Source: Candidatus Onthoplasma sp.
GTDB taxonomy: Bacteria; Bacillota; Clostridia; Christensenellales; UBA1242
Direction of reading: 5' to 3'
Length of the DNA: 64,000 nt
NCBI GenBank assembly: GCA_965646995.1
Contig: CBFGBH010000003.1
Coordinates: 3,533-67,532, forward strand
Below the pieces are notes generated by a model. It was given only the letters and a program-made list of their open reading frames with translations, did no database searches and had not been told where the DNA came from. The translations under genes were made by a program, and so were the position numbers. Shown here in pieces: positions 5,570-63,210 of the stretch; position 1 is the first letter of the stretch; each line of letters starts with the position of its first letter.

Positions 5570-6553
5570 ATGGAAAAAAATAAACCTAATCTATTAGTGA
5601 GATTATTCAATAAAATTAAAAATGCATGGAAAAATAACAAAATCGTGAAGCGTGTGGCTACTCTCGTCATCGCAGGAGCTCTCAGCACTACACTTATGTT
5701 CGGTTGTTCACCTAAGTCTACTCCGGGTCCCGGTCCTGGCCCTGGACCAAATCCATCTAGTAAGTACAGCACCATCCTCGAGAATGTATTGAAAGATGAG
5801 TACTATAATGGGCTGATTGATGCAGCGAAAGAAGACGATGAATTATATCGTTCTGCAAAATTTGACCCACATCCATATGCTTTCTTGAAAAGTAAGGGGC
5901 ATAATGTGGATAAAATCAAATCTGGCGATTTGAAATGTAGAACAGTATCTTATGTAAAAGAAGATGAACCTAATAATCTATATATGATGACTTATGTAGA
6001 GAATGAAGCTAGCGACCCATACTACACTGAATATATGTTAAAATACACCTTGACTGAACAAGAAATGAAAGACTATGCTTTCCTTCATAAAGATGGCTCT
6101 AACTATTATATACAGGCAGTGTTTATGAATGATGAAATCTCAGAGAGCAAAAAGGCTACAATTCTCGGCGAAACCAAGATGAATGTAGAGGCTCATGATG
6201 AGATGATGGGAAGTATGCAAACTACTGGAAAAATAAAAGACCATTATAAATCCACAAGAGTTGATTTAATATTAAAAAACTTTAATGAGAAAAAGCAAGA
6301 ATTTCAGGTCGTTGTTTTTCCAAAAATTTCTAACAATACTGAAATGATAAAAAATGAAATACTATTTGAATTTTCATTAACTGCAGGCTTATCAGAATTA
6401 AAAATTAAAAACAATATATTTTATGGACCAAATTTAAATCGTCAATATCTTATCAATCATGATTTAGATGCTAATACTAATGTAAAATTTTATCATTCAC
6501 AAGACACTATACTAGGCAATATTTATACGCAAGATTTTGAAATGAGTTTATAA
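5570..6553 (+). CDS. Hypothetical lipoprotein (327 aa) with a (Pro-Gly) linker after the lipobox
   Basis: ORF track. AGGAGAAAATT precedes the ATG. The N-terminus KRVATLVIAGALSTTLMFGC has a signal h-region plus Cys, followed by SPKSTPGPGPGPGPNPSS. Confidence 0.75.
   Translation: MEKNKPNLLVRLFNKIKNAWKNNKIVKRVATLVIAGALSTTLMFGCSPKSTPGPGPGPGPNPSSKYSTILENVLKDEYYNGLIDAAKEDDELYRSAKFDPHPYAFLKSKGHNVDKIKSGDLKCRTVSYVKEDEPNNLYMMTYVENEASDPYYTEYMLKYTLTEQEMKDYAFLHKDGSNYYIQAVFMNDEISESKKATILGETKMNVEAHDEMMGSMQTTGKIKDHYKSTRVDLILKNFNEKKQEFQVVVFPKISNNTEMIKNEILFEFSLTAGLSELKIKNNIFYGPNLNRQYLINHDLDANTNVKFYHSQDTILGNIYTQDFEMSL
5723..5749 (+). repeat. GC-rich (CCN GGN)4-CCN microsatellite-like tract encoding PGPGPGPGP
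   Basis: ccgggtcccggtcctggccctggacca read directly. It stands out against AT-rich surroundings. Confidence 0.8.
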
Positions 6554-27541: not shown

Positions 27542-27841
27542 ATGACAAATTTCGACTATGACAATCGCGCTATTGATTTAGCTAACTACATTTTAGATAA
27601 CCATACTACCATACGAGCTACCGCAAAAGAATTTAACATTCCTAAAAGCACAGTTCATTATGAGCTAAGTGTTAGATTAAAATATTTAAACTACAAACTA
27701 TATCTAGAAGTAAAAAAACTAATGGAAGAAAATTTCAGCATCAAACATTTGCATGGCGGAGAATCTACAAAACTAAAATATGAATCCTTAAAAAAAGAAA
27801 TAAATAAAAATGATGAATTTGATAATTCGTTCAATTTATAA
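27542..27841 (+). CDS. spoIIID: SpoIIID-family HTH transcriptional regulator (99 aa)
   Basis: AAGGAGTAAAT precedes the ATG. IRATAKEFNIPKSTVHYELSVRL...EVKKLMEENFSIKHLHGGESTKLKY matches the Bacillus SpoIIID pattern as I recall it (VIAKEFGVSKSTVHKDL...HLRGGEATKLKY). Confidence 0.8.
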   Translation: MTNFDYDNRAIDLANYILDNHTTIRATAKEFNIPKSTVHYELSVRLKYLNYKLYLEVKKLMEENFSIKHLHGGESTKLKYESLKKEINKNDEFDNSFNL

Positions 27842-58589: not shown

Positions 58590-60026
58590 ATGTCATTCTG
58601 TAAATTCAGTCCAAATTTCAATTCGAGCAATAAAACCGCGATAGATAATGTATTTATCGAAGAGTTTTTGCCTAAAGCGCCTGACCTGTGCGTCAAGGTA
58701 TACATCATGGGGTTAAACAAATGCTCTAACGCGGACGAATCTACTAATACTATTAAGTATTTTGCGGAAAAACTCAAAATCAGTGAAGAAGAGGTTGTAT
58801 CTATCTTTTACTATTGGCAGGAAGAGGGTTTAGTCCAAGTCCTATCTACCGACCCTGTCGAAGTGAGATACCTACCTGTCACTAGTTTTAATAAGAAAGT
58901 GAAAAAATATGATGTCTATAAATATACCGATTTCACTATTCAGCTACAAGAATTATTCCAAAATCATATGCTAACTCAGAACGAACTCAACGAGTATATT
59001 GCCCTACTTGAGAATAAAAACATAGAGCAATCCGCTCTTCTCGAGATAGTGAAATATTGTATTAATTATAAAGGTTTCAATCTAAGCCCTAACTACTGTT
59101 TGACTGTAGCTAGAGACTGGATAAAAAACGGCATACTCACTAAAGATGCCGTACGAAATAAAATCGAAGAGTTCGGCATAATTGATGACAAAATGGGACT
59201 TATACTGTCCGCCATGGGTAGCAAAAGAAAAGTCCAAATAGAAGATAAAGAACTTTTAAATAAATGGCTCAATTCGTTCGGCTTCGAACTGAATGTAATA
59301 ATTTTTGTAGTAAAATATCTCAAGAGTAAAAAGCGTCACCTTGACATTAATGTCCTAGACGAGTATCTCACTAAATATTTTGAAATGAAACTCATGTCTA
59401 TTTCTGAGATTGAGAACTACGAGAATGAGAAAGAAAACTTGTATTTTGTAGCCACTGCGGTCAATAAAGAATTAGGTATATACTATGAAGATTTGACTAA
59501 AGAGATAGATACATATGTAGTGACTTGGCTCAATATGGGATTTGAAATCGAACTGCTAAAAATGGTAGCTGACAATTGTTTCAAATCATCCATTCGTACA
59601 TTGGAAGGCTATAATAATATAATAATCAAATTATTTAAGCTAGGTATCACGACTACTAACGCATACATGCAATATTTAGATCATAATCTCGCTATTGATA
59701 CCAAGATTCAGCAAGTACTCTCTACTCTCAACCTTAAACGCAATGTCAATAATATGGATAGAAACTTCTATGCCACATGGACAGCTGATTGGCTATTCCC
59801 ACACGATGTAATAATGTATGGAGCGGAGCTAGGTAGAGACAAAGTGAACGCTATGCAATATTTGAACAAAGTACTTGCGAACTGGAATTCACAAGGTCTA
59901 CGCACTATAGATAAAGTGCGTGACTTAAAACTAGAGACCGAACCTAAGACCGAATTCTTACATAATAATTACACCAAAGAACAAATTGCTAGCGTCATCT
60001 CTAATCTAGATGAGGTGGAGGTGTAA
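58590..60026 (+). CDS. Replication initiation/membrane attachment protein (Bacillus DnaB / DnaD-domain family, not the helicase)
   Basis: 478 aa, a size and gene order (followed by dnaI) like B. subtilis dnaB-dnaI. N-terminus NVFIEEFLPKAPDLCVKVYIMGL is typical of DnaD-like domains. Confidence 0.6.
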   Translation: MSFCKFSPNFNSSNKTAIDNVFIEEFLPKAPDLCVKVYIMGLNKCSNADESTNTIKYFAEKLKISEEEVVSIFYYWQEEGLVQVLSTDPVEVRYLPVTSFNKKVKKYDVYKYTDFTIQLQELFQNHMLTQNELNEYIALLENKNIEQSALLEIVKYCINYKGFNLSPNYCLTVARDWIKNGILTKDAVRNKIEEFGIIDDKMGLILSAMGSKRKVQIEDKELLNKWLNSFGFELNVIIFVVKYLKSKKRHLDINVLDEYLTKYFEMKLMSISEIENYENEKENLYFVATAVNKELGIYYEDLTKEIDTYVVTWLNMGFEIELLKMVADNCFKSSIRTLEGYNNIIIKLFKLGITTTNAYMQYLDHNLAIDTKIQQVLSTLNLKRNVNNMDRNFYATWTADWLFPHDVIMYGAELGRDKVNAMQYLNKVLANWNSQGLRTIDKVRDLKLETEPKTEFLHNNYTKEQIASVISNLDEVEV

Positions 60027-60027
60027 T

Positions 60028-60942
60028 ATGGATAGAAAAAGATTAATTTCAGAGATTAAGCAGAATTTCATGTTAAAACGCATACACGCACAGGAAGAAT
60101 GCGATAATTTTATCGAAAATTTGCGAAAAAATGCAGAATTTAACGATTTATATATAAAATATAGCGAAAAACAGATAGCCTTCTGGAAATCGAAATACGA
60201 AGAGGACAATATCGAACTTCAGCACGATTTTGAAGACATCAGAACTAAAGTCGAACAATATCTCACGAAACTCGGCTACGACAAATCGAATCTAAATCCG
60301 AAATACGACTGTCCTATTTGTAATGATACAGGTGTCGTGGGTGGAAGAATATGTAATTGCTTGCTCAGCGAACTCAATCAAAAAATCTCGAGACTATGTA
60401 GCTCGCAGACTCAATTCGTGAGTTTCGCTGACTGCGATGAGAACATCATGAACGATACTGATAGGAAAGCTAAACGCATTCTCGAGAACTGGTGCGACAA
60501 ATACCCAAATGTCAGCAAAAATACTATCACTCTCATAGGTAATGCTGGCTCAGGCAAGACCTATCTACTCGAGTGCGTAGCAAGTGAGATGATGAAGAAA
60601 AATAATATCGTCTGTTTCAAGACCGCATTTGAATTAAACGAACTGGCTAGACTATATCATATCGGTAAATCGTACGACTTCGCCGATTGTATCAATGCGG
60701 AAGTGTTGATAATTGACGACCTAGCTACCGAGCCAATCTTAAAGAATGTGACTAAAGAATATATCTACAATCTCATCAACACTCGTCAGAGCAAAAATCT
60801 ACCTACCCTAATCTCGACCAACCTAGACCCTAATCAGATACTAGATAGATATGATGAGCGAATATTCAGCAGACTGAGCAATAAAAATATTTCACTCATA
60901 ATGCAACTCGATTCACAAGATAAAAGGATTACCAAAAAGTAA
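60028..60942 (+). CDS. dnaI: Helicase loader DnaI (DnaC/DnaI AAA+ family)
   Basis: Start at ATG 60028 (GGAGG, then 6 nt). N-terminal zinc module CPICNDTGVVGGRICNC. Walker A GNAGSGKTY, Walker B LIIDDL. 304 aa. Confidence 0.75.
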   Translation: MDRKRLISEIKQNFMLKRIHAQEECDNFIENLRKNAEFNDLYIKYSEKQIAFWKSKYEEDNIELQHDFEDIRTKVEQYLTKLGYDKSNLNPKYDCPICNDTGVVGGRICNCLLSELNQKISRLCSSQTQFVSFADCDENIMNDTDRKAKRILENWCDKYPNVSKNTITLIGNAGSGKTYLLECVASEMMKKNNIVCFKTAFELNELARLYHIGKSYDFADCINAEVLIIDDLATEPILKNVTKEYIYNLINTRQSKNLPTLISTNLDPNQILDRYDERIFSRLSNKNISLIMQLDSQDKRITKK

Positions 60943-61000
60943 TTCTTTTTTCATCATTATTCACTATAATTCTACAATATTTGTTTTAATCAAAGGTTTT

Positions 61001-61343
61001 TTGACTTTTGCTTTCTTTATTTGACAATATTATCTTTATTTAGACATATTCATTTTTAATTATACTATTTCATTCTATATTAGACAATATCATTATAATT
61101 TAGACAAATTTATTTCAAATTAAACAAATACATATTATATTTGACATAATCATTTTAATTTAAACAAAATCATTCAAATTCAGTCATTTAAAATTAGACA
61201 ATTTCTTTTTTATTCTGACATAACATTTTCGAATTTGACAATTTCATAGCGATTTAGACATAATCATATTAATTCGTACAATATTATTACAAATAGGACA
61301 CAATAATATATTGATAGACATTTTTATTTTTAATTAGACAAAA
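61001..61343. repeat. Array of 18 tandem units with an exact 20-bp period, core T(T/A)GACA(A/T)A(A/T)TCAT
   Basis: Hexamer starts at 61001, 61021, 61041, 61061, 61081, 61101, 61121, 61141, 61161 and 61181. One 14-bp unit follows, then starts at 61195, 61215, 61235, 61255, 61275, 61295, 61315 and 61335. GACA sits at the fixed phase in 12 of 18 units and NACA in 15 of 18. The array fills the gap between the dnaI stop and the XRE gene stop. Confidence 0.9.
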
Positions 61344-61655
61344 TTATTTATTTTTCATACCATCTAGATAGGATTCTAACTTGGCACAGTCTAGGTCGCT
61401 AATGTCCTTAATCTTATTAATCAGCTTCGTCTGTGCGTCAGTCAAAAAAGACATATCTAGATACCTATCTGTCTCATGCCCTAATAATGTATCTACTGTG
61501 ACATGAAAATAATCAGCCAATTTTATTAATGTATCAAGGTCTGGAGTCCTTTTTCCTAATTCATAATTTTGATATGCATTTGTTGTAATTTTCAAAAATT
61601 TTGCCATGTCAGCCTGTGTTCTATTATATTTATTTCTATATTTCTTTAGTTCCAT
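61344..61655 (-). CDS. XRE-family HTH regulator (103 aa), paralog of 51688-51990
   Basis: MELKKYRNKYNRTQADMAKFLKITTNAYQNYELGKRTPDLDTLIKLADYFHVTVDTLL. The C-terminal CAKLESYLDGMKNK matches CMKLKAYLDGLRNK of the interrupted copy. There is no SD, and TATAAT lies 8 nt upstream of the ATG, so the mRNA may be leaderless. Confidence 0.8.
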   Translation of the reverse strand: MELKKYRNKYNRTQADMAKFLKITTNAYQNYELGKRTPDLDTLIKLADYFHVTVDTLLGHETDRYLDMSFLTDAQTKLINKIKDISDLDCAKLESYLDGMKNK

Positions 61656-61678
61656 ATATTATAATTATATACAGCACA

Positions 61679-61765
61679 TACAAATTGTAGGTAAAAATTT
61701 TGATAATTTGTTGACTTATATACATATTGTATGTATAATTAAATAAACAACGCATACAATTTGTT
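61679..61765. promoter_or_regulatory. Three 11-bp palindromic operator-like sites (TACAW-W-TTGTW) in the divergent promoter region
   Basis: TACAAATTGTA at 61679-61689, TACATATTGTA at 61721-61731, TACAATTTGTT at 61755-61765. The middle site lies in the spacer of the plus-strand promoter. Confidence 0.55.
61711..61739 (+). promoter_or_regulatory. Near-consensus promoter for the Cys-rich gene
   Basis: TTGACT (61711-61716), 17 nt, TATAAT (61734-61739). AAAGGAGA SD lies before ATG 61790. Confidence 0.6.
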
Positions 61766-61789
61766 TGCCACATAACAAAAGGAGAAACT

Positions 61790-62068
61790 ATGAAGATACC
61801 AGAGAAATGTTTGAGTTGTAAATACTTTCACGCACATTTTATTCTTTATAATAAATTTTTGCTGTCCGAAATTAATTGTGGACATTGCACTAAAAATTTT
61901 TCACGCATGCCTAAAGCTAACTGCATTGATTATAAATATGATAAAAAGGTTGATTTAGACAATCAAAGAATGTTATTTCTAACTAGAATGCTCCAAGATA
62001 TACGACAATATATGACAGAGTTTAACAAAAAATTCGATTTTATATATCATGATTTATACAAAGACTAG
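61790..62068 (+). CDS. Small Cys-rich (CxxC...CGxC zinc-ribbon-like) protein, paralog of 51277-51549
   Basis: MKIPEKCLSCKYFHAHFILYNKFLLSEINCGHC... It has the same divergent arrangement with an XRE gene as the first cassette. Confidence 0.7.
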   Translation: MKIPEKCLSCKYFHAHFILYNKFLLSEINCGHCTKNFSRMPKANCIDYKYDKKVDLDNQRMLFLTRMLQDIRQYMTEFNKKFDFIYHDLYKD

Positions 62069-62137
62069 CATGAATATTTGTATTTTTTGTCCATTTATGA
62101 TATAATTTATATAATATTGTAAGATTAAGGAGAAAAT

Positions 62138-62605
62138 ATGAGAAGATTTGAATTAGTTAGACCTGAGTTTATAAAATACGGCGTCGACCCAAAGACTCTG
62201 AAGAAGCCATATCGTGCGACCAAGTATGCGGTGTGCTATGACTGTTTCACTCCTATTGATGTGACCGTCGCACCCGAGTCGACCGAACTAGTATTCACGA
62301 ATTTCAAAGCATACTGCAATCGTGACGAGGGCTACATGCTCGCATCTACCAGTGGCTTGGGCAAAAAAGGTATCATTCTCGCTAACGGAGTTGGCATCAT
62401 CGAGAGCGACTATGCCGACAACGAGAGCAATGACGGCAATATAGGTTTTCTACTCCGCAACTTAAATAAAACTCCGTACTCTTTCAAGGCAGGAGACAAA
62501 ATCGGTCAGATTTTCTTCTTTAAATTCTTAGTGACGGACGATGACGCCGAGACCAATGCTGGTATAGTTAGAAAAGGTGGCTTCGGCTCTACTGATAAGA
62601 AATAA
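62138..62605 (+). CDS. dut: dUTP diphosphatase (trimeric dUTPase superfamily)
   Basis: 155 aa. ANGVGIIESDYADNE... (motif 3-like), GDKIGQIFF (motif 4-like), RKGGFGSTDKK (motif 5). AAGGAGAAAAT-ATG. Confidence 0.75.
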   Translation: MRRFELVRPEFIKYGVDPKTLKKPYRATKYAVCYDCFTPIDVTVAPESTELVFTNFKAYCNRDEGYMLASTSGLGKKGIILANGVGIIESDYADNESNDGNIGFLLRNLNKTPYSFKAGDKIGQIFFFKFLVTDDDAETNAGIVRKGGFGSTDKK

Positions 62606-62637
62606 CTTGATTTTTAATAGAATTTGTCGAAAATACA

Positions 62638-62666
62638 ATAAAAAACTCGCATTTAGCGAGTTTTTT
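62638..62666. terminator. Bidirectional intrinsic terminator
   Basis: A-tract, CTCGC (62646-62650), ATTTA loop, GCGAG (62656-62660), then T6. It lies between convergent dut and the 62665 gene. Confidence 0.7.
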
Positions 62667-63090
62667 ACACTGTCAAACTATTATCTAAATGAATATAACC
62701 ATTCTCATCTATTTGATTAGGGAAAATGATAATATCTCGAGTATGGTCGAAATCCTCAAGTCTAGCATGTCTACCACGATTCGTAAGTACAGCATGCTCT
62801 ACTTCCTTAGTAATAGGGTCAGTAACTCTAGATTCTACTCGTCCGATGCAGATGTTCTTGGCATCTACTTTCTCTTGAGAGACCATACGGACTAGCTGTC
62901 CGTTGTACTCTGAATAATATACTAAACGAGCATATACTCTAGCTATGACACAATTATCTGGAAGTTTCAATTCCTCAATACTATCTGATGATAATTTGGC
63001 AGTATCTGTATCGAAGAAAAATTGTCCATTGTCACAAGTGAAATCTACATAATACTCTTTAACTAATTTCTCTGAACTTTTCTTTGCCAT
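62665..63090 (-). CDS. Hypothetical protein (141 aa)
   Basis: ORF track. AAGGAGTAAATT-ATG. No family recognised. Confidence 0.6.
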   Translation of the reverse strand: MAKKSSEKLVKEYYVDFTCDNGQFFFDTDTAKLSSDSIEELKLPDNCVIARVYARLVYYSEYNGQLVRMVSQEKVDAKNICIGRVESRVTDPITKEVEHAVLTNRGRHARLEDFDHTRDIIIFPNQIDENGYIHLDNSLTV

Positions 63091-63160
63091 AATTTACTCC
63101 TTATATTATGATGATATCACTATTTTCACAATTTGTCAATGATTAATTTTTGATTTGATA

Positions 63161-63189
63161 TTGACAACTATTCATTTGTGATATATAAT
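63161..63189 (+). promoter_or_regulatory. Consensus sigma-70-type promoter
   Basis: TTGACA (63161-63166), 17 nt, TATAAT (63184-63189). Confidence 0.6.
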
Positions 63190-63210
63190 GATGCCATAAG
63201 GAAAATTATT

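Follow-up and report, generated by a model that had tools for sequence, protein, structure and literature searches.

A degenerate array of 20-bp units beside dnaI in Candidatus Onthoplasma sp. and its single-unit counterpart in related genomes

A 20-bp head-to-tail repeat array was analysed in a 64,000-nucleotide stretch of DNA from Candidatus Onthoplasma sp. (contig CBFGBH010000003.1), which is called the window below and supplies all coordinates. The array lies between the convergent genes of a DnaI-type helicase loader and an XRE-family repressor. The array is real, its unit is homologous to a single unit found in two metagenome-assembled genomes (MAGs; L001 and L219) of a related lineage, it is absent elsewhere, and the replication genes at its flank are housekeeping genes. 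The reading that we favour, and to which we give about an even chance, is that the array is a lineage-private, old and diverged minisatellite that grew from the sequence at the XRE stop codon; we infer that it most likely lacks a dedicated function.

The array spans positions 61001-61354 and consists of 17 full units and one 14-bp unit, arranged in two blocks with a 6-bp offset. The units are of the type TT(A/T)GACA…TCAT and all lie on the same (+) strand. The parts of the array and its leader are as follows.

60943-61000, no strand: spacer leader without repeats, 58 bp; the 372 bp (60953-61324) missing from L001 consist of this leader and most of the array
61001-61180, + strand: block A, nine 20-bp units with starts at 61001 + 20n, the first of them weak, forming three copies of a 60-bp higher-order unit
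61181-61194, + strand: truncated 14-bp unit (CAGTCATTTAAAAT), the 6-bp phase slip that separates blocks A and B
61195-61354, + strand: block B, eight 20-bp units; the last of them overlaps the XRE stop and final codons and corresponds to the one unit of L001 and L219

The distance from the dnaI stop (60942) to the XRE stop (61344) is 401 bp. The first 58 bp, on the dnaI side, are unrepeated and the array fills most of the remainder, with the last unit (61335) overlapping the stop codon of the XRE gene (61344-61346). The GC content of the array was 18%, as compared with 34.6% for the window. A preliminary description, made from the letters of the DNA alone, had reported the 20-bp motif starts, the 14-bp unit, the phase slip, the second block at 61195 + 20n and the near filling of the spacer; all of these descriptive claims hold, and the 60-bp higher-order repeat is an addition to them. 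Its motif counts were also correct on recount, namely an in-phase GACA in 12 of 18 units, a perfect TTGACA in three (61021, 61141 and 61235) and TTAGACAA in four. The core was degenerate in the first unit (TTGACT...) and in units 61061, 61181 and 61275. According to the column counts over the 18 units, the conserved positions were T2 (17), T3 (14), G5 (14), A6 (17), C7 (18), A8 (16), T12 (14), C13 (10), A14 (15) and T15 (17), and positions 9-11 were half A and half T. Pairs of units typically agreed at 10-16 of 20 positions (extremes 7 and 17), or about 65%.

The autocorrelation check that the preliminary description had proposed bore out the period. The self-identity of the array was 0.573 at lag 20, 0.581 at lag 40 and 0.597 at lag 60, and neighbouring lags gave about 0.34. 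The mononucleotide shuffles reached 0.353 ± 0.025 at lag 20 with a maximum of 0.43, which places the array at z = 8.9. Moreover, the array region had the top lag-20 excess among all 340-bp windows of the 64-kb stretch. Tandem Repeats Finder returned a period of 20 (61016-61174) and a period of 60 (61018-61180, 2.7 copies, 77% matches). For block A alone, the identity was 0.74 at lag 60 versus 0.66 at lag 20. The period of 60 in block A indicates three copies of a triplet whose third unit was already degenerate in its core.

The array was also found in a second sample (SRR35209588), in which its left 48 bp and its right 196 bp (61148-61343) were exactly identical to the window. The matching contigs indicate that the array is no assembly artefact. 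These contigs end at 61048 and resume at 61148, so that the middle stretch of about 100 bp (61049-61147) comes from the window assembly only and the break inside the array gives no count of copy number within the species. A coding role was ruled out because no open reading frame (ORF) above 25 aa was present, in line with the preliminary description. A structured RNA was ruled out as well: the fold z-scores in the array were 0.13 and -0.23, and Rfam gave only a chance microRNA match that lay outside the array.

The origin of the array was traced in relatives. Of the lineages that share these flanks, the closest is an uncultured Christensenellaceae bacterium, represented by the independent MAGs L001 and L219, whose DnaI is 84-87% identical to that of the window. 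The order there is dnaI, convergent XRE gene and the gene of a 92-aa protein, and the spacer of about 50 bp contains exactly one unit (GTGACATAATTATCTATTTTTCA), which overlaps the XRE stop. In L001, this single unit follows a good two-way hairpin after dnaI. The blastn alignment of L001 with the window extended to 60952 and resumed from 61325, leaving 372 bp of the window (60953-61324) opposite 8 bp of L001. The L001 unit aligned with two units of the array, the first well-formed one (61021) and the last (61335), and alignment at both array ends is the signature of in-place tandem duplication. It was also the best match in L001 to a position weight matrix (PWM) of the array. A further motif that seemed by eye to be tied to the XRE module in L001 (TTGACA(A)TAAGTC, GTCATTTTGAC) was dropped, as the density of PWM matches there (6 in 1.56 kb) did not clearly exceed the 1.3 per kb found across the window. 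As to the search in relatives proposed by the preliminary description, a single homologous unit exists in L001 and L219, and the array itself is absent there despite the same flanks.

Beyond this lineage, seven further dnaB-dnaI loci had spacers of 2-217 bp, none of them periodic. In the relative L003, the dut start codon lies 2 nt after the dnaI stop codon. The XRE and 92-aa gene pair (61344-62068) is thus a dnaI-dut indel, whether the array accompanies it or not (compare L003 3340-3350). In relatives with 62-64% DnaI identity, chromosomal metagenome contigs of up to 355 kb preserve the order M1 peptidase, dnaB, dnaI, whereas the genes after dnaI vary by lineage (tilS-spoIIE, a VCA0040-like gene, YpsA, another convergent gene, or dut). 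Judged from this conserved synteny on the chromosomal contigs of relatives, dnaB and dnaI are housekeeping genes and not the initiator pair of an island.

On the favoured reading, the array formed in place through repeated head-to-tail duplication of a sequence of about 20 bp that abuts and overlaps the XRE stop codon. Growth would have proceeded first by 20-bp units and later by 60-bp triplets, through slippage or unequal recombination, and one 6-bp deletion would have divided the array into two blocks. Any protein binding, whether by RNA polymerase with sigma-A or by a GACA-reading factor, would then be a by-product of the TTGACA-like core. Copy number differs between related genomes as in a variable-number tandem repeat (VNTR), with 18 units here versus one in L001 and L219, but the units share only 7-17 of 20 positions instead of the high identity of a VNTR. 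From this low identity, the array is old or degenerate rather than an actively slipping VNTR. No terminal inverted repeats were found, only short AT-rich inverted matches within the array, and insertion of a transposon or miniature inverted-repeat transposable element was dropped for this reason.

Comparable arrays were sought by pattern searches. With four WGACA at 20-bp spacing, none of the matches listed resembled the array, and the pattern RACAWWWWNAT in three copies gave 34 loci, of which only those of Oribacterium were similar. A strict two-unit core pattern matched only an unrelated Oribacterium lysS-leader repeat among 185,579 species genomes, and only Oribacterium and unrelated short repeats in the metagenome collection. 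The viral scan returned only AT-rich satellites of giant viruses. The Oribacterium repeat has the 20-bp unit GTTAGACAT(A/T)TTCATCTAC in 3-6 copies and occupies the greA-lysS spacer, which on the coding strand is the 5' leader of lysS. Its copies were located as follows.

L154 6826-6943: Oribacterium repeat, near-perfect copies
L158 7432-7510: Oribacterium repeat, near-perfect copies
L159-L176, in part: Oribacterium repeat, near-perfect copies

Both arrays are made of head-to-tail non-coding 20-bp units whose number varies between relatives (3-6 there; 1 versus 18 here). In Oribacterium, the variation from 3 to 6 copies was seen between genomes and metagenome contigs, which shows that ordinary repeat dynamics do enlarge arrays of such 20-bp units. 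Copies in Oribacterium are near-identical, and thus young, and lie in a 5' leader, whereas in the window the units agree at only about 65% of positions, keep their core and have a higher-order 60-bp structure. The Oribacterium unit also shares the 14-mer TTAGACATATTCAT with unit 61039; this is plausibly due to chance given the search design, for which a rough estimate is 0.1-1 expected match. A second comparable array was found in a Pyrinomonadaceae MAG, L119 (DAITPE010000230, about 6149-6330), and surfaced only because the search pattern demanded WGACA at 20-bp spacing. Its ten units of (C)CGTAGACA, each continued by a variable T-rich tail, follow an exact 20-bp period and stand in two blocks (5 + 5) on either side of a 1-bp slip. 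A cytochrome P450 gene flanks the array on one side and a small unknown ORF on the other, and neither a Rep nor a Par gene is close by. The two arrays have in common an invariant core of about 8 bp with TAGACA, a T-rich remainder, the exact period, two slipped blocks and a chromosomal intergenic position; the phylum, the flanks and the core edges are unrelated.

Several observations weigh against a neutral minisatellite. The parsimony changes per unit column were 8, 1, 3, 7, 4, 0, 0, 2, 7, 8, 7, 3, 7, 3, 0, 5, 6, 7, 9 and 5 (92 in total), counted on leave-one-column-out trees built by the unweighted pair group method with arithmetic mean. There were 0-1 changes at T2, A6, C7 and T15 versus 7-9 at the variable columns. 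Conservation was uneven by the variance (P = 0.011), by the most conserved run of four columns (columns 5-8, GACA; P = 0.004) and by the number of columns with at most one change (P = 0.009), values that hold for a region chosen because it looked conserved and that GC-biased conversion between units could also produce. G5, C7 and C13 carry 42 of the 62 G/C bases of the array, and AT-biased mutation should erode G and C first. The exact 20-bp register was kept over 9 + 8 units at about 35-40% divergence in homopolymer-rich DNA, with a single indel. Units of neutral active VNTRs are usually near-identical, and it is unusual for a 350-bp array of about 65%-identical units to last in a compact genome. 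Furthermore, the lack of the array in L001 could be a secondary collapse and not the ancestral state. Whether gained in the window lineage or collapsed in the L001 lineage, the array is dispensable for the flanking genes. These points favour, at a modest level of support, some selection on the core and the spacing.

These features would fit phased binding sites for a trans-acting protein that is encoded elsewhere, an explanation that we regard as a serious rival, though less probable than neutral expansion. The protein would be the SpoIIID-like protein encoded at 27542 or another GACA-reading factor, and not the adjacent XRE protein. Each unit would hold one protein that touches two consecutive major grooves on one face of the helix, the first at GACA and the second some 9-10 bp further on at A14/T15, and the two blocks would lie on roughly opposite faces. 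Such sites would be of recent date, derived from one original site that was amplified, and would serve either to titrate the protein or to form a local nucleoprotein block where dnaI and the XRE gene converge. The uneven columns agree with this, A6-C7 being the best kept and T2, A8 and T15 near-invariant, as do the exact 20-bp register within each block and the placing of all sites on a single strand. Two conserved patches about one turn apart in a unit of 17-22 bp are also the pattern of iterons, which are read by two winged-helix domains (PMC4980987). On the other hand, the 6-bp slip is about half a helical turn, and a separation of this kind is reported to abolish iteron cooperativity (PMC4980987). 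The array is confined to one lineage, its core is not enriched elsewhere in the 64-kb window, so that no regulon is visible, and the support is modest (P about 0.01) for a region picked for its conserved look.

The preliminary description had named SpoIIID as the candidate binder, on the basis of a degenerate WWRRACAR box. This box fits six units, on the + strand every time, whereas shuffles contained 0.8 ± 0.9 such boxes and the window outside the array 1.4 per kb. A 99-aa helix-turn-helix (HTH) protein encoded at 27542-27841 is indeed SpoIIID-like, but its score of 77 bits against TIGR02844 is below the equivalog cut-off of 111.5 bits. The relatives carry spoIIE, and the SpoIIID-like protein and this gene together indicate that the group keeps at least some sporulation genes; spoIIE stands beside tilS just downstream of dnaI (L179 5544-6927; L182 5630-6909). 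The high-affinity SpoIIID site of B. subtilis is TAGGACAAGC and is bound by a monomer (PMC11180830). The array units match TAGGACAAGC at only about 6-7 of 10 positions and share only (R)GACA(A) with it. This shared part is the best-conserved part of the units, and an asymmetric monomer-type site suits direct repeats. The units lack the flanking G and the 3' GC of the high-affinity site, and the SpoIIID site has no counterpart of their second conserved patch, TCAT. We know of no description of arrays of 18 sites for SpoIIID. Other motifs were compared with the unit, namely the Spo0A box (TTCGACA), those of PhoP, WalR, CtsR, LexA, Fur and CodY, and the promoter elements of sigma-E, sigma-K, sigma-F and sigma-G; the conserved columns agree with none of them. 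In its general form, the proposal of a phased, one-sided binding array survives weakly (P = 0.004-0.011, exact register). Its specific forms as an origin or a centromere fail by the refuting conditions that the preliminary description itself had set, and SpoIIID stays a candidate binder. A more detailed version, which we consider rather doubtful, is that the array is a recent chromosomal binding platform with about 17 one-face sites in two out-of-phase blocks, bound cooperatively by a small factor that reads an asymmetric site, such as the SpoIIID-like protein. It would serve as a titration sink or as a roadblock between dnaI and the XRE gene, and together with the L119 array it would hint at a scattered, undescribed class of chromosomal 20-bp arrays with a TAGACA core.

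The TTGACA-like hexamers also raised the question of tandem sigma-A-type promoters. Each hexamer would pair with a CAWWWT that lies 18 bp downstream in the following unit, and the promoters would be aimed at the 3' end of the XRE gene. Antisense transcription or transcriptional interference against XRE, or a sink for RNA polymerase, might then result. Promoter-like sites numbered 24 in the region 60700-61900 versus 10.6 ± 2.9 in shuffles, and the majority of the 24 were inside the array on the + strand. One example was TTGACA-18-CATAAT at 61235-61264, with 11 of 12 matches, and another, TAGACA-17-TACCAT at 61335-61363, runs into the XRE gene. However, the second -35 position is A and not T in 11 of 18 units, and C7 (18 of 18 units) stands where the -10 hexamer wants its first T, which is strongly conserved in sigma-A promoters. 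The best-kept bases (A6, C7 and T15) are not critical promoter positions, and the corresponding L001 sequence has no -10 element. A promoter cluster is accordingly improbable, as far as the letters of the units can tell.

The genes and local elements next to the array are listed below.

58590-60026, + strand: dnaB-type (DnaB_2/DnaD-domain) replication protein; Pfam PF07261 at 7.7e-24 and TIGR01446 DnaD domain; housekeeping
60028-60942, + strand: dnaI-type AAA+ helicase loader, 304 aa; IstB and DnaA-ATPase Pfam matches; NCBIfam PRK06835, DnaI
60926-60951, no strand: weak terminator-like hairpin (GGATTAC / GTAATTC + T6), putative and read by eye, overlapping the dnaI stop
61344-61655, - strand: XRE-family (HTH_3) repressor; Pfam PF01381 at 3.6e-15; best NCBIfam match the RstR family, below cut-off; convergent with dnaI
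61530-61800, no strand: swapped cassette with the HTH-coding part of XRE and the operator/promoter region; about 55% identity between two strains
61790-62068, + strand: orphan 92-aa zinc-motif protein (CxxC..H..CGHC..C), divergent from XRE

The gene order is ABC transporter, M1 peptidase, dnaB, dnaI, array, XRE gene, 92-aa orphan, dut and two unknown genes, beyond which lies the L1-L11-NusG-SecE-L33 cluster, that is, a chromosomal context. The longest dnaI ORF opens at 60010 and overlaps the end of dnaB, but the database copy (P0001, 304 aa) and the homologues start at ATG 60028, which is probably the true start. In an exact-protein look-up, neither the XRE protein nor the 310-aa DnaI ORF had an identical record, whereas the 304-aa DnaI start matched L002. 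The hairpin at 60926-60951 is homologous to the stronger two-way hairpin in L001 (GGATTGC / GCAATCC); a terminator consensus scan did not call it, as it has too few G-C pairs. The 92-aa protein had no family match in the Pfam and NCBIfam profile searches. Its family is tiny: an exhaustive search gave 6 representatives among 1.84 billion proteins, and an indexed search gave only the protein itself. The family is too divergent for a locus scan, and the single-sequence AlphaFold model had a pLDDT (predicted local distance difference test score) of 51.

Binding by the adjacent repressor was also considered, with the array as auxiliary or looping operators of XRE downstream of its own gene. The array adjoins the XRE gene and the seed unit overlaps its stop codon. 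Moreover, the best family match of the protein, although below cut-off, is RstR-like, and RstR-type repressors use long cooperative operators. The cassette at 61530-61800, however, carries different sites in the XRE promoter region, namely three ATACAAWTTGTAT-type palindromes placed around the TTGACT-17-TATAAT promoter of the 92-aa gene, and no match to the array PWM was found there. XRE is an unlikely binder of the array because its predicted operators are these different palindromes. Two strains are 99-100% identical on both sides of a replacement of about 270 bp (window 61530-61800 versus L178 383-690, about 55% identity), which spans the coding sequence of the XRE recognition helix and the operators of XRE and the 92-aa gene and leaves the C-terminal half of XRE and the 92-aa protein unchanged. 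This replacement is an immunity-type specificity swap. The second strain has a different HTH and different operators, yet the assembled parts of its array (first 48 bp, last 196 bp) are identical; this evidence is only moderate, as the swap is recent. L001 carries the XRE module without the array. Operators of XRE are a very unlikely explanation of the repeats.

The position of the array directly after a DnaD-domain gene and a loader gene had led the preliminary description to compare it with origins of phages and islands, which lie behind their initiator genes, and to propose an iteron origin or a partition centromere. Here, the array would belong to an integrated element and would be served by the DnaD-domain/DnaI pair, or would be an orphan similar to parC or tubC. 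This is the least probable of the explanations considered. The array is AT-rich, and its direct repeats of exactly 20 bp on one strand are in helical phase and within the 17-22 bp range of iterons (PMC4980987). The unit length also equals that of the repeats to which pSK41 ParR binds, given as 20 bp by a citation in PMC9426499. Plasmid iterons (RK2, 17 bp; F and P1, 19 bp; R6K and pPS10, 22 bp; PMC4980987) are likewise direct repeats of one orientation and about two turns. Both they and the array have conserved patches about one turn apart with variable spacers, and are physically suited to cooperative binding on one face. The iteron plasmids listed in PMC4980987 have 2-7 iterons beside DnaA boxes and a Rep gene, whereas the array has 18 far more degenerate units, lies between convergent chromosomal genes and is absent in relatives with the same flanks. 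It also lacks a cognate Rep initiator and a replicon context; only the housekeeping DnaB_2 and DnaI genes are nearby, and their family-wide synteny occurs without an array.

In type II partition systems, parC consists of repeats upstream of parM-parR; R1 parC has two sets of five 11-bp repeats, pSK41 has 20-bp repeats and C. perfringens parC has 17-bp repeats (PMC9426499). The direct-repeat arrangement and the 20-bp unit of the array are like pSK41, and the two-block layout recalls R1 parC. In contrast, the array is not upstream of a par or rep operon but between convergent gene ends, on the chromosome next to a ribosomal-protein cluster and not on a plasmid, phage or mobile replicon. The Pfam and NCBIfam profile searches detected no Rep, ParA, ParM, TubZ or adaptor gene (ParR included) and no integrase near the array, and nothing similar was present in 72,556 plasmids and 50,697 phages (blastn) or in IMG/VR. 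No DnaA box with up to one mismatch was found at 60713-63209 (27 in the whole window versus 22.6 expected, a count at chance level), and the composition was not of the origin type. The two remaining checks that had been proposed also spoke against an origin: the GC skew does not change sign at the array, staying negative and merely flattening where the genes switch strand, and the curvature and A-tract phasing were unremarkable in a rough model with approximate wedge parameters. Neither the iteron nor the centromere proposal was sustained, and the likeness to a phage or island origin falls with the chromosomal housekeeping status of dnaB-dnaI.

Other features of the window were recorded away from the array. 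AT-rich short tandem repeats with periods of 9-18, including 2.5 copies of AAATAAATAAGTTGACAT, cluster at 47625-47765; in the same rough model this is the most curved spot of the window, beside the low-GC segment at 46-48 kb (GC 0.303). The AT skew becomes positive at 48-52 kb and the GC skew is briefly positive at 48-50 kb. A giant ORF on the minus strand (6663-27122) encodes 6819 aa; its product has an N-terminus like that of a lipoprotein (…SITCGVFSAC), is repetitive over long stretches and is presumably a giant surface protein.

Whichever explanation holds, the tempting but unsupported annotation of an origin next to dnaB-dnaI is removed. The array also breaks short-read assemblies, which is a practical warning. 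If the array is neutral, as we favour, it would be a clean case of a 20-bp site at a gene end that grew to a 350-bp higher-order array in a lineage of gut Clostridia. If it is bound by protein, it would show how one site gave rise to a multi-site binding platform within one lineage, and would bear on the origins of decoy or titration arrays and of iteron-like elements.

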